Source: Clostridiales bacterium (lineage in GTDB: Bacteria > Bacillota > Clostridia > Saccharofermentanales > Saccharofermentanaceae). Taken from it: a stretch of 64,000 nt of DNA. Both the position numbers and the translations under genes were made by a program. The stretch lies in assembly GCA_017561715.1 (NCBI GenBank), contig JAFZBN010000011.1, positions 18,294-82,293 on the forward strand, written 5' to 3'. The notes beneath the pieces were generated by a model. The model did no database searches. It was not told the DNA's origin and worked only from the letters and a program-made list of their open reading frames with translations. Shown one piece after another: positions 215 through 64,000 of the stretch (position 1 is the stretch's first letter; each line of letters starts with the position of its first letter).

Positions 215-306
215 TTTGTACCTCTTTTCTATGCGGTCGATGCCGTCTTTATGTGTTTTCAGGTTGTATGCTTTATGTCGTATGAAAGTGCTTTTCGCAT
301 CGAGAA

Positions 307-2829
307 TTACTCATACTTGAGCTGCTCAGCGATCTTCATCTTACGGATGTGTTTGATCGGCATCAGGACTGTCGATACGAACAGAACGAAGAGTCCGAAG
401 ATGAAAGCCATTGTCGGGAGGAGATCGATCGAAAGACCGAAGTTCATCTCGATCATCTCAAGTGCCTTCTGGAAAAGACCTGCGACAACTGCCGCGAACG
501 GGATCGCAACTACCAGCGCGACGATACTTGAGATCAGGCTCTCTGTGAAGAATGCCTTCTTCAGCTTTCCTCTGCTCATCGCGGTGGAAACTAAGACCGC
601 ACATTCTCTTCTTCTTCCGGAGAAGCCGATGGTCTGGTTGCTGACGACGGCGACGAATGTCAGGATCACGCCCATGCCGATCAGCATATAAAGGAGTGTG
701 GACATTCCGGCGTTTTGGGCTTTCACTTCTTCCATATAATCATCCATCGTCAGAACGGAGTTGATCATGCAGCCCGAGCGCTCTTTGATCGTATCGACAA
801 CGCCCTTCGGATCTTCGCAGCGGAGATATGCGCTTGTCGGATGGTCTTCGAAGATCGCGTTATAGTTATCCAGGCTGACAACATATACAGCGGCACCTGC
901 GGCGAATTTGATCGAATCACAGTATCCTGCGAGCTTCATTGTTTTATTCAGAGCTTTTTCTCCGTTCGCGCCCATGATCATCGGGATCTCGTCGCCAACG
1001 CTGTAGCCGAGTTTCTTGGCGATGGACTTATCCATGTAGATCTCATCGTCACCGATCGTTTCCGGAAGGTCCTTGATCGCGTTGAAAAGCTTGAAATCGC
1101 CTTCTGTACCGACCAGGATCGCGGTGTGATAAAGATCTCTCATTTCCTTGCTGTTCGCGGTTTCAGCCGCCTTAAGGTCATCGTCACCGATAATGAACTT
1201 GGTGCCCCAGTTATAATTCATGAATTCAACTTCAGTGACTCCTTCGATGTCATTAAAGTATTCGAATGCTTTACCTTCTTCGGAAAGGCCTGTGACTACG
1301 ACATCTGCGTCAGCTTCCGGGCGGCTACAGAAATTCACGTACGAAGTGGACAGTACAAAGAGTACGAGTCCCATGGCAACTGCCATAACAAAGAGTCTGG
1401 AGATACCTACCGAAGCCTTCTTTGTTCTTGCCTGTACGCAGGCAAAAGCAGCTACCGGGCAGTCTTTTTTAATGAAGTGCTTTTCGAGGATCTTGCTGAT
1501 CCTTCTGAGGATAAAGGGATATCCGAGGAACAGCGCGGCGACAAGAAGCACGATGGTAAGAAATACAATGGCAAGACCTTCCATTGTCTTTGTCAGGACC
1601 ATTACGAGTCCTGCGATCCCGAGTACCGCGAACAGGATCGAAGTTGCGAGCGTCTTCTTTGTATATTTGTAGTCAGTATCCTTGTTGTCAAAGATCAGGT
1701 CGCGGATCGATGTTCTTGTAGCCTTAAGGAGTTCCTTGATCGGGCAGAGGCACTCGATAACGACTGCGCCGATGATGACTCCGATCCAGGCGATGACGGA
1801 AACATTTCCGAGATTCATTTCTAGTTCGATATCCGAACCGGAGTTAAGTGAAAATACGTTATTGAAGATCGGGTCTCTGGTAAGAACATAAAGTGTAGAG
1901 CCCAAAACACCACCGATCAGGCCGTAAAGCGCATTTTCGAAAAGAACGATCAGCGCGGTGGCATTCGGGGAAACACCCAGGCTTCGAAGGGTTCCGACCG
2001 TACCCATTCTCTCGACCATGATGCGCTCGGAAAGAGAGATCGTTACGAAGATAACGAGCATCAGGCAGATGAGGAAAAGGATCGCGAAGACGCTTGTGAC
2101 GGAATTTACATTCTGCTGCACCATCTCACCGTTGATGAGATCTTCTGTCTCGAGTCCCTGTGTGTTTTCTTCCATAGCCGTGCAGAATTTTCCGACATCG
2201 CCTCTGTCGTGTACACGAACATACGCGCCTACGAATTTGAAGTCTTCTCCGAAGAGTTCGCTAAAGCCTTCCAGCGGCATGACTACGTTATACTTTTCGG
2301 AAAGCATTCCCTTATAAGTAAGGATGGACTTTACCGTAAACGCATGTGCCTTTTCTTCTTCATCGAAAAACTCGATCGTGTCCCCTGTCGAAAGATCAAG
2401 CTCTTCCGCGAGAGTTTTCGGGATCGCGACTTCATCTTCTGCGAGATCGACATCCGCCACGACGAGATCCATCTCGTTAATAGCAGCGATATCCGCGGAA
2501 TAGATCAGGATGCTCTTTTCATTGAAGTAAGCGTATTTATCGTTTCCGGGAACATTGAATGTCGTTCTGTTTCCGGTAAACATTGTCTTGTCATGCGCCG
2601 GAAGGCCTTCGAAATCAGATTCTGCCAGACCGTTATTCGCGGATACGATCACGTTACTGTCACCGAACATGGAAAGGAACGCGGATTCCAGGACGTTTCT
2701 TACCGAGTTGCTCATATCGAATGTCATCATGCCGGCGAAGGAACAGATCAGGATGCAAAGTACCAGCATGATCGTTCGAAACGGCTTGGAAAACATATTC
2801 TTCAGTGTGTGTTTAAATATTACTCCCAT
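307..2829 (-). CDS. ABC transporter permease, MacB/FtsX-like, two FtsX modules (840 aa)
   Basis: Long ORF starting [31 protein letters not shown]. Two hydrophobic 4-TM blocks are separated by large soluble loops, and the C-terminus is typical of FtsX permeases. RBS AAAGGTGAG lies upstream. It is paired with the ATPase at 1..214. Confidence 0.85.
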
Positions 2830-3039
2830 TTTCTCACCTTTATTCTTCTTTTCTCTTTTGTCCCGGGGGCGATGACCTCACCGCCCCCTTTCTCTTAGCG
2901 GAAACTTTGATGTGTTTTTTCTCCTTTTTTAGACAAAGCTACCGCCAGCGCTGCTAAAATCGGCTTTTTCAGCGCACTTCATGTTTCTTTTTTTGTCTTT
3001 GGTTTTACTTAAAGCGGTCCCCTTTTTTCGGACCTTTAC

Positions 3040-3945: not shown

Positions 3946-3967
3946 TTTACTATTCTCCTTATCCCCA

Positions 3968-6454: not shown

Positions 6455-6633
6455 TTTTTCACTCTAAAAACATAACTATCTTTTCTTATACTATCAGTAT
6501 CATACTTATATTCTTCTTCCTTATTGTCGAAAAGCACCTAATCTGCTACAATTTCCAAACGCACGACAATTCTGATCCGATAAATCAATGCGGATCACTA
6601 AATGATATAAGGACATAAAAAGAGGCAGAACTC

Positions 6634-8488: not shown

Positions 8489-9709
8489 TTACTTACCGCG
8501 ATGCTCCAGAAGATACTTTAAAGACTTTTTCGTATCCTCATGGATCTCCTGACCTTTTTCCGCGAAACTCTCTCTGATCGCGCAGTAGCACTCGATCAGG
8601 GCACCGTCGAGATCGGTCTCCGCAAGTCTTCTGATCTCCGAAAGATCATCGAAATGACGCGACGGCTCGATCTTATCCGCCAGATAAACGATCTTGTCCG
8701 TGATCGTCATCACTTCTCTTCCGATCGTATGGAACTGGATCGCGTCAAGGACCTCCTGATCTTCAACACCATAGTGTTCCTTTGCATAGACGGCACCGGC
8801 CGGCGAATGCAGGATCTGCTTTCCCGGGATATATCCGTGAATGATCTTTGCGGAAAGCTCGATCTGCTGCTTCTCGGGAAGTTCCTTGGCACAGTCGTGA
8901 AGAAGTCCCGCGAGCGCACACTTATCCGGATCCGCGCCGAATCGCATCGCATAACGAGTCGATACGACGCAAACGTTCATGCTGTGAAGAAGCCTCTTTC
9001 CGCTCATCTCATGGAAAAGCGTAAAGCAGTGCTGCATCAAGGTCTTATACATATCATCGGAAACATTCATCAAAGGAGAATCTTCCGAATAAAGATCGTG
9101 GTCTTCTATGAATTCTTTGACTACATCGCACACATCGCCGAAATCCCCGTCACGACGGATCTTGCTGGACGCGACCTCGATCCCGTCGATCTTAAAGAAC
9201 TTGACCTTCTTTCCGAATACTTCTTCAAGATGCGCCGCCTGATTTCTGGCCTGGCCCTCGTCGATACCGGGACGCAGCGCGCAAAGGAGCGTCGCGTACT
9301 CTAAGATCTCATCCGGATGATACCAGGATTCATACTCGAAAAGGATATCCGAACCGCACATCAGGAACAGCTCGTCCTTATCGGAAACGACCTTCTGCTC
9401 GCGAAGATTCTTGAGCGTATCCACCGTGTAGCTGGGCTTTCCGAAGACCTGCTCGATATCACAGACTTCGCATTTCGGCTCGTCCTTAAGGGCGGCCTTG
9501 ACCATATAGTAACGATAAGGAGAAAGCGTGACTTTGCGCGATGGCTTAAAGCAAGGCATACCTGTCGGGATGACGATCACGCGGTCGACCTTCTTACTTG
9601 CGATCGCGCCGCGGATCATAGACAGATGTCCGTTATGGAACGGGTCGAATGCCCCGCCGTAAATACCTATCTTCAAACCGTTTTCTCCTCTCTTTTCCGG
9701 TTTAATCAT
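8489..9709 (-). CDS. nadD: Nicotinate-nucleotide adenylyltransferase (NadD) fused to a YqeK-type HD phosphohydrolase
   Basis: The N-terminal GIYGGAFDPFHNGHL is the NadD (H/T)xGH motif. The C-terminal half, HSMNVCVVSTRYAMRFGADPDKCALAGLLHDCAKE, is the YqeK HD domain. The likely true start is the TTG at 9676 (LKIGIYGG), preceded by GAGAGGAG; the track start at 9709 lacks a good RBS. Confidence 0.85.
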   Translation of the reverse strand: MIKPEKRGENGLKIGIYGGAFDPFHNGHLSMIRGAIASKKVDRVIVIPTGMPCFKPSRKVTLSPYRYYMVKAALKDEPKCEVCDIEQVFGKPSYTVDTLKNLREQKVVSDKDELFLMCGSDILFEYESWYHPDEILEYATLLCALRPGIDEGQARNQAAHLEEVFGKKVKFFKIDGIEVASSKIRRDGDFGDVCDVVKEFIEDHDLYSEDSPLMNVSDDMYKTLMQHCFTLFHEMSGKRLLHSMNVCVVSTRYAMRFGADPDKCALAGLLHDCAKELPEKQQIELSAKIIHGYIPGKQILHSPAGAVYAKEHYGVEDQEVLDAIQFHTIGREVMTITDKIVYLADKIEPSRHFDDLSEIRRLAETDLDGALIECYCAIRESFAEKGQEIHEDTKKSLKYLLEHRGK

Positions 9710-9734
9710 TCCTATCGAAAAGCACTATTCTCGA

Positions 9735-15941: not shown

Positions 15942-15988
15942 GCTACTATCCTCCTACTAAAAACAGAACAGACCTATTATAAAACAAA

Positions 15989-16037
15989 AAGTGCTTTCAC
16001 GGACATTAGATTTTTTGATTTTTCCGTAAAAGCACTT
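15989..16037 (-). promoter_or_regulatory. Long hairpin in the purE leader/promoter region, followed by a T-run on the minus strand
   Basis: On the minus strand the 14-nt arms AAGTGCTTTTACGG and CCGTGAAAGCACTT (13 Watson-Crick pairs plus one G-T wobble) flank a 21-nt loop, followed by TTTTTGTTTTATAAT. It could be an attenuator, an operator, or the terminator of the upstream capA-like gene. Confidence 0.45.
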
Positions 16038-16103
16038 ACTTTTCTCGAACATATTTGTCGCGGCAGCCGAAAGCCCCTCTGCCGCAGGAAAAAGAGCCGA
16101 TTT

Positions 16104-20311: not shown

Positions 20312-20887
20312 TTATACTACAAAATCGATCTTCTTTCCATCTACCGCCGCATCAACGAGTTCGTCATTTATATATGTAAGTTTAAGGGAGAATACATCTT
20401 CCCTTTCCTTAAGCAGCCGGAAAAAGATCTTGTCGCCCGGCCAGATCGGGAGTTCTTCGACCTTATCCTCGGCGATCCACACCAGTTCGCCTTCACTGCA
20501 GTCGGGAAGCTTTCCGTCCTTTTCTTCGGCAAAAGCACCTGTCCCGGGGACATTTCCCTCGTATCCGTCGCAGGTATAAAGGAACGTGATCTCGTCGATC
20601 TCGTCGATCACAAACGTGATGATCCCGCGAAGACGGAAAGATGTCATGGTGATTCCCGTCTCCTCTTTCACTTCACGGAGCACACATTCTTCCGGCGATT
20701 CTCCGTGTTCGAGATGTCCGCCGACACCGATGTACTTATCTTTATTGATGTCATTCTCTTTTTTCGTACGGTGCATCATCAAGATCCCTTGAGGTCCGTA
20801 AATATAACAGAGAGTAGTCTCGTAGCGGTTCATTTTCCTTGTATTCCTTCTCCCGTCGGGGTTTTCGGGTTTTTCTTCCGTTTTCAA
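20312..20887 (-). CDS. NUDIX hydrolase (MutT-like)
   Basis: Nudix box GVGGHLEHGESPEECVLREVKEETGI. The track start at 20887 is a TTG. The ATG at 20833 (MNRYETTLCYIYG) is an equally plausible start. Confidence 0.8.
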   Translation of the reverse strand: MKTEEKPENPDGRRNTRKMNRYETTLCYIYGPQGILMMHRTKKENDINKDKYIGVGGHLEHGESPEECVLREVKEETGITMTSFRLRGIITFVIDEIDEITFLYTCDGYEGNVPGTGAFAEEKDGKLPDCSEGELVWIAEDKVEELPIWPGDKIFFRLLKEREDVFSLKLTYINDELVDAAVDGKKIDFVV

Positions 20888-23643: not shown

Positions 23644-23695
23644 TGTTTTTATCGAAGACGAGTTCTTTCGTCGAATAGTGCTTTTCGAGAAGAAT

Positions 23696-23728
23696 AAAAA
23701 GGACTGCCCAAACGGACAGTCCTTTTCG
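23696..23728. terminator. Bidirectional terminator between the convergent radical-SAM and putP genes
   Basis: AAAAAGGACTGCCCAAACGGACAGTCCTTTT. The stem is GGACTG/CAGTCC plus CC/GG, flanked by A- and T-runs. Confidence 0.7.
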
Positions 23729-25303: not shown

Positions 25304-25424
25304 ATGATTTACCCCCCTCTACTTAACAACAGTTTTATAGTATCAAAGACGGGGGCGGAATTCCAGCGGTTCTGCGCACATGCAGGGACGTTTTTCACGT
25401 TTTTTCACTTCGCGAAAAGCACCG

Positions 25425-27689
25425 TTACTCGACCTGAAGTTCGACGATCTTACCATCCTTCCACTCGAGGACTTTCAAAGTCTTACCTCCGCGCAGGCAA
25501 AGTCCCTCGACGCGGCCGTGCTTTTTCCACGCTTCGGGAAGCGCGGGAAGATAGCGGATCTCTTCTTCGTGGCTCTGCACCAGCATCTCGGCGATTCCTG
25601 CTGTCGCGCCGAAGTTTCCGTCGATCTGAAACGGCGGGTGATCGTCAAAAAGATTCGGAAGCGTCTGCTTATGGATCAGCGTCATCAGGTTCTCAAAGGC
25701 CTTCTCCCCTTCGCCGAGGCGCGCGTACATGTTGATGATCCACGCGCGGCTCCAGCCCGAGTGACCGCCGCCGAAAGATAGTCTTCTTTCGATCGTTTTC
25801 TTTGCCGCCTCGAAAAGCTCCGGTGTCTTGTCCTTACTGATCTGCGTTCCGGGATAGAGCGCAAAGAGCTGGGAGATGTGCCTGTGACCGGGCTCATCTT
25901 CTTCGTAGTCCTCATTCCATTCCATGATCTGCCCATGCTTTCCGATCGTGATCGGAGCGATGCGGGAAAGGACTTCTTCCGCCCGAGGAGTAATCGGATC
26001 GAAGGTCGGAACCACATCTGAGTCGACAGCGGAATCCTCATTCATCACAGCAACAGAGGATGCCTGCCCAAGTGCTTTTTCCGCGGAAATACAGGCATTC
26101 AGAAGTTCTCTGATGATCTGGTTATCCATCGACGCGCCCTTACAGATCACGCCTTTTTCACCGTTTGGAAGGATGTAGGTATTTTCCGGAGAAAGCGTCG
26201 GGCAGGTCACCAGGTATTTGCCGTCATCGATCAGATAGTCCATGACGAACTCGGCGGCCTCTTTCATGAGCGGATAGTTGTCTTTCAGAAACGAAATATC
26301 CTTTGTGAAAAGATACTGCTCCCAGACGTGAAGCGCGAGCCAGGCGCCGCCCATGACCCAGTAGGTCGAGCTGATGCAGATATCCTGCGGCGCGGTATCG
26401 CCCCAGATATCCGTGTTATGGTGCGCGACGAAACCCTTGCAGCCGTACATCTTCTCTGCCGTGACCCTGCCGTTTTCGCGAATGCGGTAAAGGAGCGAGA
26501 TCAAAGGCTCCTGGCATTCGGCAAGGTTCGTGAGCATCGCCGGCCAGTAGTTCATCTCGGTATTGATATTGATCGTAAAGCGGCTTCCCCACATCGGAGT
26601 AAAGTCCTGATTCCAGATCCCCTGTAGGTTCAGCGGCAGAGAACCGGGGCGAGAGCCTGCGATCATCAGGTATCGGCCGAACTGGAAGAACCGCTCGACC
26701 TCTTCCTGTCCGTCGATCTGAAGTTTTACCCGATCGTAAAGAGACTTGTGATCGGAAAGATGCTCGGAATAAAGGCTCTCCCACAAAGCCGAAGGATCTG
26801 TCTGATACGAAGCGACATCCTCCAAGCGTTTCAGGACCGACATAGCCGGATCTTCTTCACGGAAAGAGGTATCCGCGCAAAGTATAAGGAGCGCTTCGTC
26901 CGCGTGTAAGATGCGGGTCGTATTGCCGATCACTTCGACGGTACCGCCTTTGGAAATGACCTTCACGCCGCAGGCCATCTTCACTCCGCCCGCGCCTCCG
27001 GCTGTCGCTTCCATCAGCTGGACGTTTCCCGGCTTTGCCGTGATGCTGTCACAGAATCCTGTATATGCCTGTCGTCTTAATGTCTGTTTCTGATACGGGA
27101 TCTCTTCCCAGGGCTTTCCCGGGTTTCTTCCGAGCTGCGCGTGAAAGCTCAGCGCACCGGGCGTATCCGCCGTAAGATGGATGAGCATCGCGTTTTGCGG
27201 GAAGCTCGCGATCACTTGTCGGGTATATTTCACATCGGCGGGTTCGCCATGATCCGAAGCACTGCCCGCAGACGAACCTCGTATCACAAAGCTCGTCGTG
27301 ACCGTCGCGGTCTGAAGATCGAGTTCACGACTGTAATCGGAATATTCCGTTTCCTTCCCGTCGAATTCGATATAGAGATTTCCCAAAGGCTCGTAGTGAC
27401 GGGATTCCTCCGGAATACCCGAAAGCGCGAAGGTACAGAGTTCCTGTGCTTCAGCGATTTTTCCTTCGAGGATGAGTTTTCTGATCTTCGGAAGGTTTTC
27501 CAATGCAGACGGATTGTTTCGGTCCTGAGGGCCGCCGTACCAGACACTGTCTTCATTGAGCTGGATGCGTTCGGTAAAAGGAAGTCCGAACACCATGCCG
27601 CCGAGTCTTCCGTTTCCGATCGGAAGCGCCTCTTCCCATTCTTTTGCCGGGGAAGAAAAAGAAATCACGCGAGAAGTGCTTTTCGACAT
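25425..27689 (-). CDS. Glycoside hydrolase family 95 (alpha-L-fucosidase-like)
   Basis: 754 aa. The N-terminal [19 protein letters not shown]...[11 protein letters not shown] is the GH95 N-terminal signature. RBS GGAGG upstream. Confidence 0.85.
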
Positions 27690-33198: not shown

Positions 33199-33210
33199 GG
33201 TCTTCTCCTT

Positions 33211-34506: not shown

Positions 34507-34551
34507 GATGATTCTCCTTACTTGTTATCTAAAAGCACTGTTCGTGCGGCA

Positions 34552-36712: not shown

Positions 36713-36824
36713 GTCTCTGCAAATGTCCCTGTAGAAGCGCCTTTCAGGGACTTTTACAGGGATTTTTCCGAAAGTCTATAAAAAAGTCCCTGTAGGGCTG
36801 GTCTACAGGGACTCATACAGGGAC
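36713..36824. repeat. Cluster of GTCCCTGTA / TACAGGGAC hairpin repeats related to the 57.2-kb tandem array
   Basis: GTCCCTGTAG occurs at 36725 and 36786. (T)ACAGGGA(C) occurs at 36745, 36755, 36803 and 36816. GTCTCTGC is at 36713. Hairpin 1 is GTCCCTG-13 nt-CAGGGAC and hairpin 2 is GTCCCTGTAG-7 nt-CTACAGGGAC. Confidence 0.7.
36780..36812 (-). terminator. Intrinsic terminator of the lipoprotein gene 36848..37939
   Basis: A 10-bp stem (36786..36795 pairing with 36803..36812) with a 7-nt loop. On the minus strand it is followed by TTTTTT (plus-strand A-run 36780..36785). Confidence 0.7.
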
Positions 36825-38045: not shown

Positions 38046-39050
38046 TCAAACTGTCGGATCAGCCGGTGTGTTGTCGACCGGAGCTGCAGGAGCTTCAGGA
38101 GCTGCCGGAGCAACAGGAGCCTGCGGAACTTCCGGAACTGCCGGAGCCGGTGCAACAGGAGCAACCGGAGCCTGCGGTACGACCGGAGCCTGAGGAGCAA
38201 CCGGAGCCTGCGGGAATGCCGGAGCCTGCGGAGCTACAGGAGCCTGAGGAGCTGCCGGAGCCTGCGGGAATGCCGGTGCCTGCGGGAAACCTGTCGGCTG
38301 AGCAAATCCCTGATCAACCGGAGCCTGCGGGAATGTCGGAGCAACCGGAGCCGGTGCCGGAGCATTCTTCTTCTTCTTGCTGATGAGAACGATAGCTACA
38401 ACAACTGCTGCAACTACGAGAATACCAACGATGATACCGATGATAAGACCCCACGGAATGCTGCTGGACTTGGAAAGATCAAATTCGCAGTAGATGGACT
38501 CGTCGAGATCCATAAGATCCCACTCGAGTGTGTTGCCCTTCTTGCTTGTAGCGTTGTCATCGATCGCCTTGCCCGGGAGTTCGAGAACGAACTTCATGTA
38601 GCCGTCATACTGATCAAGAGTATCGGTAGAGATACCGGAACCGGAAGCCTCAGATGACGTATCGGAAGCATCCCATTCGAGTGTGTAAACACCGTCATCC
38701 TCTTCAAGAGAGAAATCAGAAACTTCGAAACCTTCTGACAATACATCTTCGAGTTCATCAAGAGGGATATCAAGAACAGTAGCTGTAAAACCTACAAAAC
38801 CATCCTCGTCATACTCATCGATCTCATAATCATAATCCAGATCCTCGAACGCTTCTTCGATCTTTTCCTGAGAATCATCCATGCCTGTAGCATAGTCTTC
38901 CATGATCGCATACACGAATGTGATATCCGCAGTACCGTCAGAGCTGATCTTCGCTGTCATGCTGTAACGCATGCATCCTGTGAAGCAGACGATGATAGCG
39001 AAAACGAGCATAAGCGCAGAGAACTTCTTAAACTTTGTTCTTTTTTCCAT
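38046..39050 (-). CDS. Lipoprotein paralog with a C-terminal TM segment and a (A/V/F)PQAP(A/V) repeat tail
   Basis: Start at the ATG at 39050 (MEKRTKFKKFSALMLVFAIIVCFTGC, lipobox FTGC) with GGAGG upstream. It has the same ectodomain, TM segment and KKKK layout as 36848..37939, and shares motifs such as GCxRYS, SSDGT, YGGYMKF and LEWDL. Confidence 0.65.
   Translation of the reverse strand: MEKRTKFKKFSALMLVFAIIVCFTGCMRYSMTAKISSDGTADITFVYAIMEDYATGMDDSQEKIEEAFEDLDYDYEIDEYDEDGFVGFTATVLDIPLDELEDVLSEGFEVSDFSLEEDDGVYTLEWDASDTSSEASGSGISTDTLDQYDGYMKFVLELPGKAIDDNATSKKGNTLEWDLMDLDESIYCEFDLSKSSSIPWGLIIGIIVGILVVAAVVVAIVLISKKKKNAPAPAPVAPTFPQAPVDQGFAQPTGFPQAPAFPQAPAAPQAPVAPQAPAFPQAPVAPQAPVVPQAPVAPVAPAPAVPEVPQAPVAPAAPEAPAAPVDNTPADPTV
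38148..38291 (-). repeat. Coding 18-nt (hexapeptide) tandem repeat, about eight copies
   Basis: The protein tail reads GFPQAP AFPQAP AAPQAP VAPQAP AFPQAP VAPQAP VVPQAP VAPVAP. The DNA shows reiterated GGAGCCTGCGG/GGAGCAACCGGAGC units. Confidence 0.7.
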
Positions 39051-39370: not shown

Positions 39371-40894
39371 TTACGAAAAGAACCTTATCTTCTTCTCTGT
39401 CATCTCATCTACTTTGGCGATGTACTGGATCGGATCCTTGATGCACGGGCATCGCTCGACACGAACGTGCAGCGCGTCGTCGGATCCGAAGAAGACTCGC
39501 TTGCTCATGCCGCCCGCGCCAAAGGACAGTACGGATCTCTGGTCGCTCATCATGGCGACGTTATATACGCACTCTGTGCCGTCTTTACTGTAACCGACAT
39601 TCTCATGCCCGCCCAGCGTGTCCTTCTGCTTATACATATAGTAAGGATTATATCCGGAAGAAAGAAGATTCTCCGACGCAAACGAAAGCATCTTCTCGAT
39701 TCTCTCGAGTTCCTCTTTTTCCTGCTTGACGATCTCTTCTCGAGAAAGCGACGCGCGGCGCTTCTTCGAAAGAGAATGCACGGTGATGTTTTCCGGGCTA
39801 AGCTTGATGATCCTCGTAAGCGAATCGCAGAACTCTTCAGTTGTCTCACCCGGAAGCCCCGCGATCAGGTCGGTGTTGATGATCGAAAAGCCCATTTTCC
39901 TTGCCATTTCAAATGCTGCTTCAAAGTCCTCTGCCGTGTGTTTTCTTCCGACGCGCGCAAGTGTTCTGTCACAGAGCGTCTGCGGATTGATGCAGATCCT
40001 CTTTACCCCTGCGTCAAGAAGCACCTGCAGCTTCTTTTCCGTGATGGTGTCCGGACGTCCCGCCTCGACACAGATCTCCTTAAGGGCGCTAAATTCCTTA
40101 TGCGAGAAAACGCCCTTGATGAACTTCTCGAAAAGCGCCTCCGACAGAACTGTCGGTGTTCCGCCTCCGATATAGAGCGTCTCGATCTTTCCTTCGATTC
40201 TCGGCAGTACCATATCCATCTCGGAAAGAACCGCATCGACGTACTGCGGCAGAAGCGCCGTTTTCCGGGGCGCTTCCTGCGCGACAAAAGAACAATACGC
40301 GCAGCGGCTCGGGCAGAACGGGATCCCGATATAGACATGAAGTGAATCCTTATCGGTTCCGGAAAGCACGAGGTCTTCCCTGTCGCGGGTAAGAAATGCC
40401 AGATGCGCCTTATCTTTTCGAACGTCGTAGATATTCGTCATTTCCTCTTCAGAAGTCAGTTCTCTTGCAACCTGTGTCGGACGAATACCAGTCAGAGATC
40501 CCCACGGAAAAGCTCTTCCCGACAATCGCGAAAGCAGGAAATACAGTTGTCTTTTTACCTCACGGTTTGGAGGAAGAAACATGTCTTCCTTATCGATAAA
40601 GATGCGCCAGGGGTCTTCTCCCGGCGCTCCCTTTTCCGTATAAGTCTCGACCCGGTCCTCCGAGATGCTGCTGACCAGAATGAGGTCCGAAGAAGACGGA
40701 TCGATTGAAGAAGCCATCGCGCCGGCATCACAGACAACGCAAATTTCTTCCTGACGCGGGATCTCTCCCGTAAAAAGACGCAGGATATCGCTGATCGGAT
40801 AGAAGAACTCATGGCCGACGCATCTGACGATGATCTTCGGGCTCTTTTCTTCCTCACCCGAGTGCTTTTCGATTGTTACTTCCTTATTTTTCAT
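39371..40894 (-). CDS. hemZ: HemN/HemZ-family radical SAM protein (oxygen-independent coproporphyrinogen dehydrogenase-like)
   Basis: 507 aa. The radical SAM motif is IGIPFCPSRCAYCSF. The N-terminal extension of about 190 aa and the overall length are typical of the HemZ subgroup. The function in a likely heme-free anaerobe is uncertain. Confidence 0.7.
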   Translation of the reverse strand: MKNKEVTIEKHSGEEEKSPKIIVRCVGHEFFYPISDILRLFTGEIPRQEEICVVCDAGAMASSIDPSSSDLILVSSISEDRVETYTEKGAPGEDPWRIFIDKEDMFLPPNREVKRQLYFLLSRLSGRAFPWGSLTGIRPTQVARELTSEEEMTNIYDVRKDKAHLAFLTRDREDLVLSGTDKDSLHVYIGIPFCPSRCAYCSFVAQEAPRKTALLPQYVDAVLSEMDMVLPRIEGKIETLYIGGGTPTVLSEALFEKFIKGVFSHKEFSALKEICVEAGRPDTITEKKLQVLLDAGVKRICINPQTLCDRTLARVGRKHTAEDFEAAFEMARKMGFSIINTDLIAGLPGETTEEFCDSLTRIIKLSPENITVHSLSKKRRASLSREEIVKQEKEELERIEKMLSFASENLLSSGYNPYYMYKQKDTLGGHENVGYSKDGTECVYNVAMMSDQRSVLSFGAGGMSKRVFFGSDDALHVRVERCPCIKDPIQYIAKVDEMTEKKIRFFS

Positions 40895-43688: not shown

Positions 43689-44702
43689 TTATCTTGTCGT
43701 GATCTCTGCCGCGTATTTGTCACCTAAGTGATATACCGGCCGTGATCCGTCTTCGCCGCCGTCCTTTGTGATTGGAAGGCGGTAGACCTTGTTATCTGAC
43801 GTGATGACGTCGACATATGTCTTGTCATCTGTTCTGCACCAGTAGAAAGTGGAGCCGCCCGTGATCGTTGTGGCCTCACCTTTCAGGTTCGTGCACGAAA
43901 TATCCATATTCGTGTTATAAAGGTACGAAGTCCTCTCAACGTTTCTGTCCGAAAAGAAATACTCTGTCTGCGCCTTGAGGAAATCCGTTTCACTCGTGAT
44001 GTCGTAAGTTCTATATAACTTATGCTCACCGTAAACACAATCGTAGATCGAGAACTGCACGGCGCCCGCGTTGGAAACGGCGGAGATCGCGCCTCTTACG
44101 ACAGAAGCCTGGATCCTCGTTCCGTCATAGCGGACGACCAGCGTCTGGTATTCATCCCAGTTGTCACGCATCATCTCGAAGCATACTTCCGAATAAGGAT
44201 CGTTCTTATCCAGATCGAGCGTATACCCGCGGAACATGCCCTTGCAGGCCTTTGCTCCGTATTGTTCCATATACGAAAAGCACTTTTCGGGAACGACATA
44301 GTCCATAAGGTTTCCGCCGTCGTTGACAAGAACATAGAGTGATTCACTGTGGTCATCCAGCTCGATGCTCATAGATTCAAGTGCTCCGTCACCGTCAAAG
44401 TCGAGATCGCACTCGGCACGGTATGCCGTGTAGTAAAGCCCGTCATCCGTCATCGCGGATTCCTCTCTCATACCCAGCATACCCGGTGTCTCATGGAACA
44501 GCTGCATCTTATCTTCTTCGAGATCACCGACGGCAGATGCCGCGTCCGAATTACTCTTCTGCGTAACTTGCGCAGTCGTCGCGTCCGTATCCGGAGCCAC
44601 TTTGGCTTCGAACGGATTTACGAACACCAGGATCAGAACGATCGCTAAGACCGCGACGATATCGATGATCACAAAGCCGATTATGAATTTACTGTTTCGC
44701 AT
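43689..44702 (-). CDS. Membrane-anchored hypothetical protein
   Basis: 337 aa. N-terminal TM segment (FIIGFVIIDIVAVLAIVLILVFV), then a soluble domain. No family recognised. Confidence 0.6.
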   Translation of the reverse strand: MRNSKFIIGFVIIDIVAVLAIVLILVFVNPFEAKVAPDTDATTAQVTQKSNSDAASAVGDLEEDKMQLFHETPGMLGMREESAMTDDGLYYTAYRAECDLDFDGDGALESMSIELDDHSESLYVLVNDGGNLMDYVVPEKCFSYMEQYGAKACKGMFRGYTLDLDKNDPYSEVCFEMMRDNWDEYQTLVVRYDGTRIQASVVRGAISAVSNAGAVQFSIYDCVYGEHKLYRTYDITSETDFLKAQTEYFFSDRNVERTSYLYNTNMDISCTNLKGEATTITGGSTFYWCRTDDKTYVDVITSDNKVYRLPITKDGGEDGSRPVYHLGDKYAAEITTR

Positions 44703-46007: not shown

Positions 46008-46122
46008 TTTCCTGCCTCCATTGAAACATATAACTTTGTAATTTTACCATAAATAGGCAAACTCTTCTATATTCTTATAGAAAAGCACCGGTATAAACAA
46101 AATGTGGATTTCGGGGGCGTTT

Positions 46123-53867: not shown

Positions 53868-53949
53868 AGCGAAAAAGAAAGCCGAGGAGCGGTGCTTTTC
53901 GCGAGGTATGAAGCTGCTCCTTGAAGCAAGGAATTGAAGGTGTTTTTGT

Positions 53950-55560: not shown

Positions 55561-55603
55561 AACAAAAAAAACAGAAGCCAAATCAAAGACAGGAGGGGTT
55601 GCC

Positions 55604-56248
55604 ATGTCTGAGATCAAAGAGAATCAAAAGCGTATCTCTATCGCCGGAAAACAGATCTATGTGTTGTCGTGGGTTTCTTTCGCCACTTCTCTTCTTTGGA
55701 TCTGTCGTTCAATCTTTTTCTTGGCGTTATCACTATCTTCTGCTCAAAAATGCATAACCGTCTTGTCAGTTATTCTGTTCGCTTTCAACTTTGCTTTTGC
55801 GTGCGGTCTGTTTTCTCTTGCCCGACAGTCAAAAGCTTTCATCTTGTCAGGGATCTTTCTGATCCTTGCTTCGGCAGCGGATCTGCTGACATGGTCATGC
55901 ATTAACAGCACCGTCATACTCATCGTATTCTACCCGATCTACATTCTTTTTATACCCATATTCCTGACACTTCTTTGCAAAGGCATGATGACGATCGTCG
56001 AGCATACCAACGGGGACACCTATTACAAGTGGATACCCTACAGAAGCGCTTTCATCTTTCTTTATGCCGCAAGAATACTGTGCGTAGTTGCCATTTTAGT
56101 TCCGGGCATGGGCGCGTTTTATGAATTCATCATAATTTGCTTTTCCGTACTGACACTCATCACTTACGCGACCTCGTTCTGGCGGTTTTTCCTTTTACGC
56201 AAAACGTCGCAAGAATTGGAAGAATACAGTAAGCTCACCATCGAGTAA
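55604..56248 (+). CDS. Polytopic membrane protein, unknown function
   Basis: The start at the ATG at 55604 has AGGAGGGG upstream. The track ORF is extended upstream into ppaC. About six hydrophobic segments. Confidence 0.55.
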   Translation: MSEIKENQKRISIAGKQIYVLSWVSFATSLLWICRSIFFLALSLSSAQKCITVLSVILFAFNFAFACGLFSLARQSKAFILSGIFLILASAADLLTWSCINSTVILIVFYPIYILFIPIFLTLLCKGMMTIVEHTNGDTYYKWIPYRSAFIFLYAARILCVVAILVPGMGAFYEFIIICFSVLTLITYATSFWRFFLLRKTSQELEEYSKLTIE

Positions 56249-56370
56249 GTAATTCGAGTTAAATAATGACAATCCTCGCGCTTTTGTCAGCAGTTGTCTG
56301 AAAACCGGCCATCTTTTAACTTCCTTTCTGGCGTACAATCAGAGCCATCCCACAAATAGAGGTACGGAAC

Positions 56371-57129: not shown

Positions 57130-57200
57130 GCAATGTATTTCTTTGAGCCCTTTCTTTGGCATCCCGTCACGGTCGGAAACTTTTTCCTTCTTTTACAAAA

Positions 57201-57435
57201 GTCTCTGTAACTGTCTCTAAAACTGCTTCTACAGAGACTGTTTCAGAGGATTTCGACGTTTTCCTCTGTTTTTGTCTCTAAAACTGCCTCTACAGAGACT
57301 ATTTCAGAGGATTTCGACGTTTTCCTCTGTTTTTGTCTCTGTAACCGCCTCTACAGAGACTGTTTCAGAGGATTTCGACATTTTCCTCTGTTTTTGTCTC
57401 TAAAACTGCTTCTACAGAGACTGTTTCAGAGGATT
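57201..57435. repeat. 61-bp tandem repeat, about 3.7 copies, two hairpins per unit
   Basis: Units start at 57213, 57274, 57335 and 57396 (the last is partial), plus a 12-nt partial unit at 57201. The unit is GTCTCTAAAACTGCTTCTACAGAGACTGTTTCAGAGGATTTCGACGTTTTCCTCTGTTTTT. Hairpin A is GTCTCT...AGAGAC and hairpin B is CAGAGGA-11 nt-TCCTCTG followed by T5. There are only a few substitutions between units. Confidence 0.9.
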
Positions 57436-57451
57436 CTTGCGCATCTCCCCC

Positions 57452-58564: not shown

Positions 58565-59235
58565 GCTCCCTTCGTTGATACTTCAGAGATGGCTCCGTCC
58601 CAGATCTTTACGATCATGTCGGCGTCCTGGATGATACTGGTATCGTGCGTGATGACCAGAACGAGTCTGTCCTTGGAATACTCTTTTAATCTGTCCATAA
58701 CGAGAAACGCATTCTCATGGTCCAGCGATGCCGTCGGCTCATCCGCGAAAAGCACCTTCGGGTCATTCATCATCGCTCTGGCGATGGCGACTCTCTGTCT
58801 TTGGCCTCCGGAAAGTTTCGTCGGCTTATGACGAAGTTCGCTCTTTTTCAGTCCGATCTCAAGAAGAAGTTTTTCCGCCTTTTCCCTGGCCTCGTTGACC
58901 GGGATCGTCGATGCGATCGTCGCGTTATCGAGCGCCGTCATGTAGTTGATGAGATAGTGTCTCTGGAACACGAATCCGAACTCATATCTTCGAAGATGCT
59001 GCTTCTCCGAGTCGCTTATGGACATCAGTGATTTGCCGTTATAAAGAACGTCTCCGGAAGTCAGTTTCTTCAGTGTCGACATCGTATACATCAGCGTGGA
59101 TTTGCCGGAACCCGAAGGTCCGATGATTCCGACCAGGCCTTTATCCGGGAAAGTGATATTCATGCTGCGCATCGCGTACACCTTTTCTTCCTTGTCCATA
59201 TCGTAGATCATGTTGGCGTCTTTTAATTCAAACAT
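58561..59235 (-). CDS. ABC transporter ATP-binding protein
   Basis: Walker A GPSGSGKST, signature LSGGQRQR, Walker B VLFADEPT. RBS AAGGAG upstream. Confidence 0.92.
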   Translation of the reverse strand: MFELKDANMIYDMDKEEKVYAMRSMNITFPDKGLVGIIGPSGSGKSTLMYTMSTLKKLTSGDVLYNGKSLMSISDSEKQHLRRYEFGFVFQRHYLINYMTALDNATIASTIPVNEAREKAEKLLLEIGLKKSELRHKPTKLSGGQRQRVAIARAMMNDPKVLFADEPTASLDHENAFLVMDRLKEYSKDRLVLVITHDTSIIQDADMIVKIWDGAISEVSTKGA

Positions 59236-59288
59236 CTTCTTTGCTCCTTTATTCTTCTCTATCGATCCCTATCGAAAAGCACTTGTCC

Positions 59289-60479
59289 TTATGACTCGAT
59301 CGTGTCGATCGTCTGTATCTTTCTCATTCCGTTGAAGATCGGTATCTGAGAGAAACCGATCAATGCCAGGAACACTACACCTATTCTCGGTAACGCGGCT
59401 GGTCTCCAAACCTTGATGATGATGCCCAATGGATCATATAAGAATGTCTTCAATCCGAAAACGACCAGTGAGCACAAAACCGCTCCCACAACGATCGACA
59501 AAGCGATACATATCAGTATCTCTTTTAATGCCATCACATAGATCTCACCGGTCGAAAAGCCGATAGAATTCAGAAGGCACCACTCGTTATGTCTGTCCAT
59601 GATATGAAGCGCGAGGACCACCGAAACACAGATCAGAAGAAGCGCGCCGGATACTGCGGTCAACAGCGTCTGTACAATGCCCATCGATCCCAGACTATCC
59701 TCGTGATTCACTTTTGCTCTTTCTATCGTTTTGTAGTACCAGACCTCATAGCCCTGCTTTTCGAGAAGTACGCTGCCATTGACCGTACTTCCCTCTTCGA
59801 TCATGACCAGTATATTGATATCGTTTTCTCCCGGCTGCTCGATACCGAATGCCAGATAGTAGTCAGAATCCACGATACCGACGACCTCGTATTTATTTCC
59901 CAGATACTCGAGAAGCTCATTATCGTTACTGTGGTTTTTCTCAAGTTTCTTATCGACCAGGATCTCTCCCGCTTTTTCCGGCATTCTTCCCGAAACAAGC
60001 TTCGCGTCCATATGCGAAAGATAATCTTCGCAGTCCGATGTATTCTCGAAAAGAAAACAGTCCATACTGCTGTTTCCGATCACGGAATTCAGTATCACAT
60101 ACTGCCACGCAAATGGTTTGGCATCGATCACACCGTCTTCTTTGGAGATAGCTTCCGCCGCAGATCTGGCGCGCGCCCAGGCCTCCTCCATATATTCTTC
60201 ATCTGATTCGTAATCCTCACCGTTCATCCCGAGAGTTGATGATACGATCTGAAGGCGTTCATACGGGGCAACATCACCCGCGTAAAACGGCTCGTCCATT
60301 CCTCCGATCACGTAATTAACGACATACATCATCAGAATAAAAACGGAAAGACTGACGATGAGCGCAGTCGTTCTCACTCGGTTATTCCGTATATAAGGCC
60401 ATGGGGAAAGCTTCGATCTTGCTTTGTTCATTTCCTTTTCCGTTTCTCCTTTAATCTCACGCGAAAAGCGCATTTCCAA
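59289..60479 (-). CDS. ABC transporter permease, single FtsX module
   Basis: SPWPYIRNNRVRTTALIVSLSVF is paralogous to the N-terminus of 57452..58564, with three TM segments at the C-terminus. The track start is a TTG. The ATG at 60431 (MNKARSK), preceded by AAAGGAG, is the more likely start. Confidence 0.8.
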   Translation of the reverse strand: MEMRFSREIKGETEKEMNKARSKLSPWPYIRNNRVRTTALIVSLSVFILMMYVVNYVIGGMDEPFYAGDVAPYERLQIVSSTLGMNGEDYESDEEYMEEAWARARSAAEAISKEDGVIDAKPFAWQYVILNSVIGNSSMDCFLFENTSDCEDYLSHMDAKLVSGRMPEKAGEILVDKKLEKNHSNDNELLEYLGNKYEVVGIVDSDYYLAFGIEQPGENDINILVMIEEGSTVNGSVLLEKQGYEVWYYKTIERAKVNHEDSLGSMGIVQTLLTAVSGALLLICVSVVLALHIMDRHNEWCLLNSIGFSTGEIYVMALKEILICIALSIVVGAVLCSLVVFGLKTFLYDPLGIIIKVWRPAALPRIGVVFLALIGFSQIPIFNGMRKIQTIDTIES

Positions 60480-60510
60480 CTACACTCACTTTACTAAACC
60501 TGATTCAGAC

Positions 60511-60554: not shown

Positions 60555-60593
60555 ATAGATCTCAGTTAGAAGCAAAGTGCTTTTCGCGAAGGA

Positions 60594-62102: not shown

Positions 62103-62166
62103 AAAGTCCCCTCCTTGTTTTTATCGGTGATATTTTTATGATAACGCTTTTGATAAGATACTGCAC

Positions 62167-62214
62167 GAAAAAATACCGCTCCGAATGGTAAAAAATTCGA
62201 AGCGGTTTTTGTTT
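62167..62214 (-). terminator. Terminator-like hairpin downstream of the carboxyltransferase gene
   Basis: Stem ACCGCTCCGAAT (62175..62186) pairs with ATTCGAAGCGGT (62195..62206) with one G-T pair. There are T-runs on both strands. Confidence 0.65.
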
Positions 62215-62267
62215 ACTTTATTATCTTGACTTTTTCCCCGGCGAAAAGCACCGTGGTCTCATCTTGA

Positions 62268-63659
62268 TCACCAGACGACGTTGATCTCCTTGACCTTGTC
62301 CTCTTCCGGTTCTTTCACGCTGTCTCTCTTCTGGATGAATCCCGGAGCGACCTGCGGGAAAAGCGCACAGGACAGTACGTCTTCTTCGGATCTTGCGAAT
62401 TCGGAAACCTCCGCGCGGAGTGTCTCCATCTCGTTCGCGATGTTATCCGCCGGACGGCATTCGATCACCTTCTCGTCACCGATCGCCATCTTTCTGACTT
62501 CTTCGTTGACCTTTCCCGGAAGACGTCCGTACTCACCGCGAAGCAGCATCTTCGACTCCTTCGGGAACGTCTTATAGCGGCCCATCAGGACATTCATGAC
62601 GGCCTGCGATCCGACGATCTGGGAGGTCGGAGTAACCAGTGGCGGGTATCCGAAATCTTCACGAACGCGCGGCACTTCGGCGAGCACTTCTTCGAAGCGG
62701 CTCTCGGCACCTGCCTGCTTGAGCTGGTTAAGAAGGTTCGAGAGCATTCCGCCCGGAACCTGATAGATCAGTGTATTCGGATCGACACGAAGGACCTTCG
62801 GATCGAGGATGCCTTGATCCTGAAGCTTCTGCGCGACGCCCTTAAAGTGCGAAGCTGCCTTCGAAAGCAACGGAAGGTCGAGGCCTGTGTCACGAGGCGT
62901 GCCCTTAAACGCGGCGACCAGAGATTCCGTTGCCGGCTGGGATGTGCCCGTTGCCAGCGGAGAAAGCGCCGTGTCGATGATGTCTACGCCGGCAAGTGCC
63001 GCAGCATAGTAGACCATCGCGCCGGTACCTGTTGTATCGTGTGTATGCAGGTGGATCGGAACATCTACCGCTTCCTTGAGCTTACTTACGAGAGAATACG
63101 CGGTCGACGGCAGGAGCAGGTTCGCCATGTCCTTGATGCAGATCACATCCGCGCCCATCTCAACGAGATCTTTTGCCTGCTTTACAAAATACTCTTCGTT
63201 ATGCACCGGGCTCGTCGTATAGCTTAACGCCGCCTCGCATGTACCGCCGTATTTTTTTACGGCTCGCATCGGGCTCTCCATGTTTCGAACGTCATTCAGA
63301 GCGTCGAATACACGAACGACATTGATGCCTTTTTCGATCATTCTTCCGCAGAAGGACTCGACAACATCGTCCGCATAGTGACGGTATCCCAGAAGGTTCT
63401 GCGCGCGAAGGAGCATCTGAAGAGGTGTCTTCGGCATCGCCTTCTTAAGCGTTCTAAGTCTCTCCCACGGATCCTCATCGAGGAATCTCATGCAGGAGTC
63501 AAATGTCGCGCCGCCCCAGCACTCCAGGGACCAGTATCCCATGTTGTCAAGGATTTCGCACGCCGGAAGCATATCCTCGATGCGCATTCTCGTCGCGGCC
63601 TGCGACTGGTGCGCGTCACGAAGGATCGTATCCGTGATATATAACTTTTTTTCTGGCAT
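62268..63659 (-). CDS. Oxaloacetate decarboxylase alpha / pyruvate carboxylase subunit B / transcarboxylase 5S-type carboxyltransferase (no biotinyl domain)
   Basis: The start at the ATG at 63659 (MPEKKLYITDTILRDAHQSQAATRMR) opens the HMGL-like TIM barrel. HLHTHDTTGTG is also present. The track ORF is extended 18 codons upstream from a GTG. Confidence 0.88.
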   Translation of the reverse strand: MPEKKLYITDTILRDAHQSQAATRMRIEDMLPACEILDNMGYWSLECWGGATFDSCMRFLDEDPWERLRTLKKAMPKTPLQMLLRAQNLLGYRHYADDVVESFCGRMIEKGINVVRVFDALNDVRNMESPMRAVKKYGGTCEAALSYTTSPVHNEEYFVKQAKDLVEMGADVICIKDMANLLLPSTAYSLVSKLKEAVDVPIHLHTHDTTGTGAMVYYAAALAGVDIIDTALSPLATGTSQPATESLVAAFKGTPRDTGLDLPLLSKAASHFKGVAQKLQDQGILDPKVLRVDPNTLIYQVPGGMLSNLLNQLKQAGAESRFEEVLAEVPRVREDFGYPPLVTPTSQIVGSQAVMNVLMGRYKTFPKESKMLLRGEYGRLPGKVNEEVRKMAIGDEKVIECRPADNIANEMETLRAEVSEFARSEEDVLSCALFPQVAPGFIQKRDSVKEPEEDKVKEINVVW

Positions 63660-63669
63660 TTGAAGCATC

Positions 63670-64000
63670 TTACTCCACCTCGAAAAGCACTTGTCCGGAT
63701 GCGACCGTGTCACCCTTGTTTACATAGAGTGCTTTTACCACACCGGCCTTCGGGCTGTTGATATCGTTTTCCATCTTCATGGCCTCGAGAACAACGACCG
63801 CTTCATCTGCGTTAACAGAATCGCCGACGTTCTTATTGACACGAAGGATCGTGCCCGGCATCGGAGCGTTAACGCTGCCTGCGCCACCAACTGCCGGTGC
63901 CGCGGAAGCCTTTGGAGCCGGAGCAGCGGCCGGAGCGGCCTTAGCAACCGGTGCGGCGACAGGTGCTTTTGCCGAGGAAGCGGACTTTGCTTCGCTCTCG
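63670..64000 (-). CDS. Biotin carboxyl carrier (biotinyl domain) protein, C-terminal part; the gene continues beyond the window end
   Basis: The C-terminal GTILRVNKNVGDSVNADEAVVVLEAMKMENDINSPKAGVVKALYV contains the biotinylation motif EAMKM. The frame stays open upstream through an Ala/Pro-rich linker to position 64000, so the M at 63861 is not the start. Confidence 0.8.
   Translation of the reverse strand, partial: ESEAKSASSAKAPVAAPVAKAAPAAAPAPKASAAPAVGGAGSVNAPMPGTILRVNKNVGDSVNADEAVVVLEAMKMENDINSPKAGVVKALYVNKGDTVASGQVLFEVE

Follow-up and report, generated by a model that had tools for sequence, protein, structure and literature searches.

What keeps a single ten-letter word far above its chance frequency in a bacterial genome, and why does it lie so often just past a stop codon? 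The question is raised by a stretch of 64,000 nt from a Clostridiales bacterium of the family Saccharofermentanaceae (assembly GCA_017561715.1, contig JAFZBN010000011.1, positions 18,294 to 82,293; the whole stretch is referred to here as the window), in which a first-pass annotation had noticed that the 10-mer CGAAAAGCAC, or GTGCTTTTCG in the opposite orientation, was strongly over-represented and concentrated at gene junctions. The over-representation of CGAAAAGCAC is real, and it had not been described previously in the literature searched, where queries with the 10-mer and with the 9-mer returned primer-like coincidences only and the motif was found in no paper.

Abundance and placement of the word

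All 15 exact copies were recovered at the coordinates first given for them, eight reading CGAAAAGCAC on the plus strand and seven on the minus strand, whereas 0.22 copies were expected from dinucleotide-preserving shuffles (100 shuffles, maximum 2) and 0.35 from an order-3 Markov model of the window, an excess over chance of about 40-fold. When one mismatch was allowed, 44 copies were counted in the window versus 5.5 expected, each one-mismatch variant being present in 0-4 copies compared to 15 for the exact word, which reveals a sharp specificity. When all words of 8-12 nt in the window were compared, CGAAAAGCAC ranked first as a dispersed signal, the others being coding low-complexity repeats. 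The statistics of this work were based on 83 kb of the studied genome and ~100 kb from four relatives; in the studied genome the density is one exact copy per 4-5 kb and one core per 2 kb.

The invariant part of the word, AAAAGCAC, was found in 30 copies in the window (3.8 expected) and is followed mostly by T or C, giving a core AAAAGCAC[T/C] that is extended to CGAAAAGCAC in the studied species. The flanks outside this core are weak, roughly RGTGCTTTT-SS-MK-ARG-N-A, with a preference for R at -1, for S-S-M after the T run and for A-R-G-N-A five to nine bases beyond, and they carry less than 1 bit of information per position beyond ~3 nt from the core. The extended consensus RGTGCTTTTCG[AC][GT]A[AG]G proposed at the outset holds in this sense, as weak flank information. 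Four one-mismatch copies in spacers, two of which had been given as cores of 8-9 nt, were also real (Table 1).

To place the copies, the gene map was rebuilt from open reading frames (ORFs), with Pfam and the gene calls of public contigs as controls. Spacers account for 9.0% of the window but contain nine of the 15 exact copies (binomial P = 1.1e-6), and 11 of the 15 lie no more than 35 nt from a gene boundary versus 1.65 expected, a number that none of 20,000 random draws reached. The concentration at junctions was thus borne out, and the boundary was a stop codon in nearly every case. Eight of the intergenic copies are in co-directional spacers and one is in a convergent spacer, with none in the five divergent (promoter) spacers. 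Their distances from the stop codon were 2, 6, 7, 9, 9, 16, 24, 34 and 74 nt, whereas those to the next start were variable, from 8 to ~200 nt. It is the preceding stop codon, and not the start, to which the copies are anchored. Where a canonical terminator hairpin exists (23696-23727, after 62242 and after 60577), the word sits between the stop codon and the hairpin; some copies are found in short intra-operon spacers, namely those of the purD/nadD-like genes, of the 2-aminoethylphosphonate (AEP) transaminase and phosphoenolpyruvate (PEP) mutase genes, and of the genes for a 396-aa protein and an ATP-binding cassette (ABC) ATPase.

One correction concerns the copy at 9716, which sits ~39 nt, and not 6 nt, before the start of the nadD-like gene. 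The start of this gene is most likely a TTG near 9676, which is preceded by AGAGGAG and yields the usual MKIGIYGG N-terminus, and with it the apparently impossible gap of 6 nt disappears. The gene was probably annotated 11 codons too long (window 9676-9709).

Strand use, coding copies and relatives

The cumulative GC skew was monotonic across the window, which therefore represents a single replichore. Over 83 kb of this replichore, the strand counts were 10:7 for the 10-mer and 22:20 for the 8-mer, without any skew with respect to replication. Both orientations relative to transcription occur, as noticed in the first reading, with a ratio of 7:5 for the exact copies near junctions.

Coding sequences were enriched too. 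Six exact copies were found in genes compared to 0.76 under within-gene shuffles of synonymous codons (500 shuffles, maximum 4), and 18 cores compared to 3.6 (maximum 9 in 500), so that coding enrichment reaches 5-8 fold, although the intergenic enrichment is higher. The coding cores were read in both senses, 11 as AAAAGCAC and seven as GTGCTTTT, and in frames that encode common peptides such as KAL, [S/G/R]AFA, VLF and EKH.

Public assemblies of the same strain reach past both ends of the window and supplied 19.4 kb of new sequence, which held two exact copies and 12 cores versus roughly 0.1 and 1.1 expected from the rates of the window model. The density of the exact 10-mer there was about half of that in the window, but the excess persists. 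The other assemblies of this strain, which come from several samples, are 99.8-100% identical.

A protein search with serS assigned the window to uncultured rumen Clostridia and returned as the nearest GTDB species representatives metagenome-assembled genomes (MAGs) from yak and other ruminants, with 99, 98 and 95% identity over the best segment, the next match being Candidatus Aphodoplasma with 87%. The density of AAAAGCAC per 10 kb was about 5 in the window and about 5-7 in L002 (the pur locus of a different species, ~85% nucleotide identity), in L006 and L007 (syntenic, 75-85% nucleotide identity) and in the metagenome contig L086; it was about 2 in L008 and about 0.5-0.7, the background level, in ~150 other Clostridia loci. 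A metagenome scan with the xanthine permease retrieved distant relatives only (at most 84% identity over the best segment), L086 being the sole clearly enriched locus. The core common to the clade is AAAAGCACT, and the preferred 5' flank varies by genome in the manner of dialects: CG in the studied genome (17 of 42 cores), GC or GG in L086, TC in L002 and a mixture of GA, GG and CC in L006 and L007. Among the loci compared, the word is thus restricted to a genus-level clade formed by the nearest relatives.

Some sites have been retained at orthologous positions. One is the block CAGTGCTTTT, located between the AEP transaminase and PEP mutase genes: it does not vary among the window, L006 and L007, whereas the flanks and the spacer length differ. 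In the spacer between the genes for a GH43 glycoside hydrolase and a DHH phosphoesterase, the core GTGCTTTT is kept ~24-45 nt past the stop in the same three sequences while its surroundings and the spacer length have changed; in L008 this segment is deleted. Coding copies in purN and in the PGA_cap, pantothenate kinase and CmpB genes are also common to relatives. None of the outcomes that the first-pass annotation had named as refuting its claim was obtained: the enrichment extends beyond the window, and some sites are conserved in close relatives. At two intergenic junctions the core was retained amid diverging flanks.

Taken together, the exactness of a short word, its symmetry with respect to strand and orientation, its enrichment in coding and non-coding DNA and its restriction to a genus with flank dialects place the signal at the level of double-stranded DNA, as the mark of a process that reads it throughout the genome, and they are at odds with a regulatory or RNA element.

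No comparable dispersed word was found in the other loci, except for a palindrome resembling repetitive extragenic palindromic (REP) elements in an Oscillospiraceae MAG and a weaker CGCGAAAA signal. The former (GGTGATTCCCCTAACAGGGGAATCACC, in L025, OZ007023.1, 729-16959) is a classical REP-like palindromic repeat with eight copies in 21 kb. The latter was detected in two rumen metagenome contigs of a different rumen lineage (L088, Ga0247608_10003045, and L094, Ga0310695_10002166) at 8-9 copies per 20 kb, ~15-20 times the expectation; CGCGAAAA is perhaps another hyperabundant word, and only CGAAAA is common to it and to the studied word.

Explanations for the abundance of the word

The closest match among known systems is given by the DNA uptake sequences (DUS) of Neisseriaceae (GCCGTCTGAA and its dialects) and the uptake signal sequences (USS) of Pasteurellaceae (AAGTGCGGT and ACAAGCGGT). 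These are words of 9-12 nt with copies numbering hundreds to thousands, which occupy permissive regions, lie towards the ends of genes and differ as dialects between related species, about half of them being in terminators, mostly as inverted pairs (PMC1852404, PMC3630211, PMC2346458, bioRxiv 10.1101/2025.10.24.684340). Like them, the word studied here is 9-12 nt long, is preferred in its exact form, has weaker flanks and uses both strands equally; it is found in genes but is denser in the permissive spacers at gene ends, is restricted to a family or genus with dialects in the flanks, and is kept at orthologous positions, and its coding copies lie in frames for common peptides and in poorly conserved parts of proteins. 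The sequence AAGTGC is shared with the Haemophilus USS by coincidence. Unlike DUS and USS, the word belongs to a Clostridia lineage of Gram-positive type, which is not known to show any uptake specificity, and several of its gains came with insertions.

On these grounds, we tentatively read the word as an uptake-sequence-like, or otherwise protein-read, self-tag that accumulates in permissive DNA past stop codons, a reading to which we give clearly less than an even chance. It was ranked first because the exact word, the symmetry, the excess in both coding and non-coding DNA and the restriction to a clade with dialects match what is described for DUS and USS. A genome-wide, sequence-specific process would keep the word far above chance, most likely the preferential uptake and/or recombination of word-carrying DNA, and the word would mark the DNA as self, in the manner of DUS and USS, for a putative DNA receptor. 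Copies would survive where they are cheapest, that is, in the short stretch that separates a stop codon from the terminator or from the next ribosome-binding site, in variable loops and linkers of proteins and in lineage-specific insertions. It is proposed, accordingly to this mechanism, that the bias towards junctions reflects the permissiveness of the DNA there, so that a function at each site would not be required. Of the three readings that had been offered at the start, the uptake-like one is the one compatible with the strand use, the coding excess, the clade restriction and the dialects; the other two, a global regulator and a processing site, are taken up below.

It is possible, if doubtful, that this is the first sequence for DNA uptake or self-recognition outside Proteobacteria, in which case a genus of rumen Clostridia would be tagged with AAAAGCACY, with species dialects such as CGAAAAGCAC. 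A DNA receptor would then favour conspecific DNA in natural transformation, implying an active and kin-biased gene exchange in the rumen. Hyperabundant exact words are rare, and each of the cases that are understood (DUS/USS, Chi and the FtsK-orienting polar sequences, KOPS) revealed a protein machine reading the chromosome; failing uptake, the word would be indicative of a system that reads DNA at the ends of genes. The word and its dialects could be put to practical use as a cheap marker for binning contigs of the clade and for tracing recombination between species, and also as a marker of foreign DNA, as islands and prophages should lack copies.

Several observations weigh against an uptake-like tag. 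Uptake sequences outside Pasteurellaceae and Neisseriaceae were not found in the literature searched, and no competence gene was present in the 83 kb examined of the studied genome. The word is 2-4 times less dense than known uptake sequences and its intergenic bias is stronger than reported for DUS and USS. Whereas these often form inverted pairs in terminators, such pairs were rare here, with 2-3 among 42 cores (15978-16037, 19684/19707 of the same-genome contig L166 and the palindrome at 44274) compared to ~1 expected by a rough estimate. In co-directional spacers across the clade, the core was read as GTGCTTTT in the sense strand at ~12 of 16 independent sites (12:4, or 17:4 when orthologues are counted). 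Of the four window-specific copies for which a comparison with relatives was possible, three lie in lineage-specific insertions. Finally, nine pairs of copies were identical at 15 or more of 24 flank positions, versus 1.2-2.2 expected from a single position matrix. Gains inside insertions and an excess of flank sharing are not what a drive acting purely through point mutations would predict.

The site could instead be bound by an abundant sequence-specific protein at gene ends, acting as a roadblock or insulator, as a domain boundary or in the organisation of the nucleoid, with the stop-proximal sites being functional individually. We consider this rather unlikely, albeit a serious competitor. 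Such a protein would account for ~19 nt of information in two blocks about one helical turn apart (RGTGCTTTT and ARGNA), for the tight placement 2-35 nt past stops and ahead of canonical terminators where these are present, and for the core being kept at orthologous junctions despite flank changes, and both orientations are expected of a DNA site. It does not account for the enrichment of coding copies distant from gene ends, and the preferred flanks differ among congeneric species, a pace of change that is high for a regulator and its target. Motifs of nucleoid proteins are degenerate. One site per 2-4 kb with the sharpness of a word would be unusual for such proteins, and no candidate was identified.

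The insertions described above suggest another origin, in which copies would spread into spacers and, in frame, into genes as part of a miniature inserted element, or through short templated insertions or gene-conversion patches of ~25-65 nt, with the word as the conserved centre. The three insertion-borne copies are those in an 11-aa in-frame insertion of the NUDIX gene, in 62-68 nt upstream of serS and in the indel-rich N-terminus of a radical-SAM gene, and a copy specific to L006, at 12336, lies in a spacer enlarged to ~62 nt from the 15 nt seen in the window. Some non-orthologous copies match over 23-28 nt with 88-91% identity, and 25 pairs of copies were identical at 13 or more of 24 flank positions compared to 2.4 expected for random sites; the nine closer pairs somewhat exceed the prediction of a single matrix, meaning that sub-types or occasional copying exist. 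Nevertheless, the inserted segments have the word alone in common, without terminal inverted repeats, target duplications or constant length, the flanks of most copies are unrelated, and the copy at 44274 arose through a dense patch of amino-acid-changing substitutions with no indel. Moreover, any drive would leave copies in insertions, as constraint on the DNA is lowest there, and the window-specific coding copies do lie in poorly conserved or inserted segments of proteins. This origin is judged unlikely.

REP elements, their mosaic assemblies (bacterial interspersed mosaic elements, BIMEs) and small repeats such as the Rickettsia palindromic elements (RPEs) are similar to the word in being found directly past stops, in either orientation, inside operons and occasionally as in-frame insertions in genes. 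However, REPs and RPEs are imperfect palindromes of 35-150 nt conserved over their full length, whereas the word has ~9-11 conserved nt with weak flanks and no hairpin, and it contrasts likewise with the REP-like palindrome of L025. A long repeat of REP type, or one resembling miniature inverted-repeat transposable elements (MITEs), was rejected, as most flanks are unrelated and a repeat search yielded no family beyond a few pairs of 23-28 nt.

A role of the transcript, in which the word would be an RNA element of 3' untranslated and intercistronic regions (GUGCUUUUCG in the mRNA) with functions in termination, processing, stability or the binding of a protein, appears quite improbable. The copies are indeed stop-proximal, in the transcribed 3' region ahead of terminators, a T run is present, the bias of co-directional spacers towards the GTGCTTTT sense is in line with it, and good hairpins precede the T run in L006 and L007. 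The inverted motif pair that had been seen in the purE leader is also real, forming a strong hairpin of 15 bp followed by a U run (-21 kcal/mol, z -4). This hairpin is built from two-mismatch variants, however, and its 3' arm is not conserved in L002, for which reasons it is better regarded as a local by-product than as the essence of the motif. The sites of the window fold no better than ordinary sequence and share no structure, no Rfam family was matched, and several copies lie in intra-operon spacers of 25-55 nt, where termination would be harmful. With the junction ratio of 7:5 and the coding enrichment in both orientations, these data argue against the RNA-processing site suggested initially, which is weakly supported at best.

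A word may also be kept abundant by biased mismatch repair, linked to a methyltransferase or not, as proposed for the octamer of the highly iterated palindrome HIP1 (GCGATCGC) of cyanobacteria, without any role at single sites. HIP1 is like the studied word in being hyperabundant, lineage-specific, short and present in coding and non-coding DNA, and a repair-driven word should be found on both strands, as is the case here. Specificities of methyltransferases change rapidly, at a pace comparable to that of the preferred flanks between species. On the other hand, HIP1 is a palindrome linked to methyltransferase sites, whereas the word is asymmetric and concentrated past stop codons, no methyltransferase or Vsr-like gene was seen in the 83 kb, and a repair bias alone explains neither the 10-fold higher density past stops nor the gains by insertion. 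We regard it as very unlikely.

An artefact of chance or composition (codon usage, low complexity or assembly) is refuted for practical purposes: although some coding copies encode common or conserved peptides, such as VLFADEP of Walker B, and words with one mismatch, for example CGAAAAGCTC, are commonplace in coding sequence, no dinucleotide shuffle exceeded two copies, synonymous shuffles fell far short of the coding count, most copies are intergenic, the sequence is the same in independent assemblies from several samples, and the enrichment of the core extends to four related genomes but is absent from ~150 other loci.

Other known signals were rejected. Chi and the words that orient FtsK or SpoIIIE (KOPS and the SpoIIIE recognition sequences, SRS) are likewise short words in excess, recognised on DNA by a protein machine as the studied word may be, but they show a strong leading-strand skew, are enriched few-fold and lie mostly in genes, in contrast to a word that is enriched 40-fold with an intergenic bias and no skew with replication direction in any of the strand counts. 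Intrinsic terminators resemble the word in having a T run shortly past stops, and some copies follow small hairpins; yet the folding of 21 sites gave no consistent stem, the 68-nt contexts of the window having ordinary energies of -10 to -17 kcal/mol, pairing of nearby CGAG or CGAAG with TTTTCG was weak and inconsistent, and copies are found in both orientations, upstream of true hairpins or within operons. A promoter or operator of a global regulator, as had been suggested, is not supported, given the absence of all nine intergenic copies from divergent promoter spacers and the anchoring to stops, mostly at 2-34 nt, with variable distances to starts. Promoter and terminator scans showed no association with the motif except for one sigma-70-like overlap at 6524-6552, where the copy at 6528..6537 overlaps a promoter-like TTGTCG-17-TACAAT site. 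Regarding known protein sites, sigma-54 was rejected for lacking GG at -24 and the Spo0A box as TGTCGAA is present in only two of the 15 copies, and the controlling inverted repeat of chaperone expression (CIRCE), the LexA/Cheo box, boxA, the ComK box and the NusG pause motif TTNTTT were rejected on sequence or position. Complementarity to conserved segments of 16S rRNA was unconvincing.

Individual sites and other features of the window

Table 1. Exact copies, one-mismatch copies and further core variants in the window, with their strand and gene context
Feature	Position	Strand	Context
Exact copy	288..297	-	Intergenic; ~9 nt after FtsX-permease stop (307), ~75 nt before ABC-ATPase start; CGAAAAGCAC in transcription sense
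Exact copy	1477..1486	-	Within FtsX permease gene (peptide LEKHF); distant from gene end
Exact copy	6528..6537	+	Intergenic; 74 nt past stop of 250-aa gene, 97 nt before MatE start
Exact copy	9716..9725	+	Intergenic; 9 nt past purD stop, ~39 nt before nadD-like start; GTGCTTTTCG in sense
Exact copy	23678..23687	-	Convergent spacer; 34 nt past stop of radical-SAM/B12 gene, directly ahead of bidirectional terminator hairpin 23696-23727
Exact copy	25413..25422	+	Intergenic; 2 nt past GH95 stop, ~110 nt before SSF symporter start
Exact copy	27676..27685	-	Codons 2-5 of GH95 gene (MSKST)
Exact copy	40862..40871	-	~23 nt past DUF3810 stop, in indel-rich N-terminal part of radical-SAM gene; not in L006, L007, L008
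Exact copy	44274..44289	+	Inside palindrome CGAAAAGCACTTTTCG in 337-aa gene; window-specific; EKCFS versus GTEF in relatives
Exact copy	53892..53901	-	Intergenic; 24 nt past GH43 stop, 48 nt before DHH phosphoesterase start
Exact copy	58746..58755	+	ABC ATPase gene; encodes Walker-B stretch KVLFADEP
Exact copy	59273..59282	+	Intergenic; 6 nt past stop of 396-aa gene, 37 nt before ABC ATPase start
Exact copy	60577..60586	-	Intergenic; 7 nt past xanthine/uracil permease stop, upstream of terminator-like hairpin; CGAAAAGCAC in sense
Exact copy	62242..62251	+	Intergenic; 16 nt past oxaloacetate decarboxylase alpha stop, upstream of canonical terminator hairpin
Exact copy	63681..63690	+	Final codons of biotin carrier gene (GQVLFEVE*), 13 nt before next start
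One-mismatch copy CTAAAAGCAC	34529..34538	+	45-nt spacer between AEP transaminase and PEP mutase genes
One-mismatch copy AGAAAAGCAC	46079..46088	+	Upstream of serS, in 62-68 nt insertion not in L006, L007, L008
One-mismatch copy CGAAAAGCGC	60462..60471	+	Directly upstream of ribosome-binding site of 396-aa gene
One-mismatch copy CGAAAAGCAA	5401..5410	-	Long divergent spacer between PadR and 250-aa gene
Inverted pair of core variants AAGTGCTTTTACGGA ... TCCGTGAAAGCACTT	15978..16037	-	15-bp hairpin then T run, between PGA_cap gene and purE
Core copy GGCAAAAGCAC	20516..20543	+	In 11-aa in-frame insertion of NUDIX gene (versus L002)
Core copy GGCAAAAGCAC	63958..63985	-	Ala/Pro-rich linker of biotin carrier gene

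The window contains the pur operon, ABC/FtsX transporters, GH95 and GH43 glycoside hydrolases and a phosphonate/cell-wall polymer cluster, together with serS, a hybrid kinase, a GGDEF regulator and an operon of oxaloacetate-decarboxylase type, most genes being on the minus strand. As shown in Table 1, the palindrome reported by the first-pass annotation at 44274-44289 is present. The copies at 60577-60586 and 60462-60471, the latter with one mismatch, form a long-range inverted pair. The two GGCAAAAGCAC copies, in the NUDIX insertion and, on the antisense strand, in the biotin carrier linker, are identical at 25 of 28 nt (89%), and the biotin carrier gene holds three cores: in the Ala/Pro linker, in VKALY and in the terminal GQVLFEVE. 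In the same genome, ~6.9 kb to the left of the window, a perfect inverted pair AGTGCTTTTC-N12-GGAAAAGCACT (L166 19684-19714) lies ~36 nt into a GH10 gene and may form a hairpin of 11 bp.

In the Rfam scan of the window, a tRNA-Pro was the single match, as it was in the tRNA scan, and no riboswitch or T-box was found upstream of purE or serS. The region upstream of the pur operon (purE-F-N-H; 15942-16103) is 89% conserved with respect to L002 and L003 and carries a TATAAT box, with no purine riboswitch.

The AEP cluster (window 32077-35682) encodes a PEP mutase fused to a cytidylyltransferase domain, a phosphonopyruvate decarboxylase and an AEP transaminase, and adjoins genes for a protein similar to lipoteichoic acid (LTA) synthase and a CDP-glycerol glycerophosphotransferase; the vicinity of phosphonate and wall-polymer genes suggests a phosphonate-decorated wall polymer. 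ORF-based calls leave a gap of 810 nt at 55561-56370, in which public contigs place a gene of 214 aa on the minus strand (L170 17238-17882).

Repeats of other kinds were also detected. The spacer at 57130-57451 holds tandem units of 61 nt that are 91-92% identical (57203-57435), each with a GTCTCT...AGAGAC hairpin, and the copy number of this array varies between assemblies of the same strain, two of which (L170 and L171) are without window positions 57253-57394. Inverted repeats of 54 nt made of GTCCCTGTAG/CTACAGGGAC modules, which resemble the hairpins of the array at 57.2 kb, were found at 36713-36824 upstream of a gene encoding an LppM-domain protein. A long run of coding repeats of 9/18 nt (GGAGCCTGCGG-like, 38077-38357) lies in an LppM-domain protein, and the same type of repeat dominates the k-mer statistics of L006, L007 and L008.

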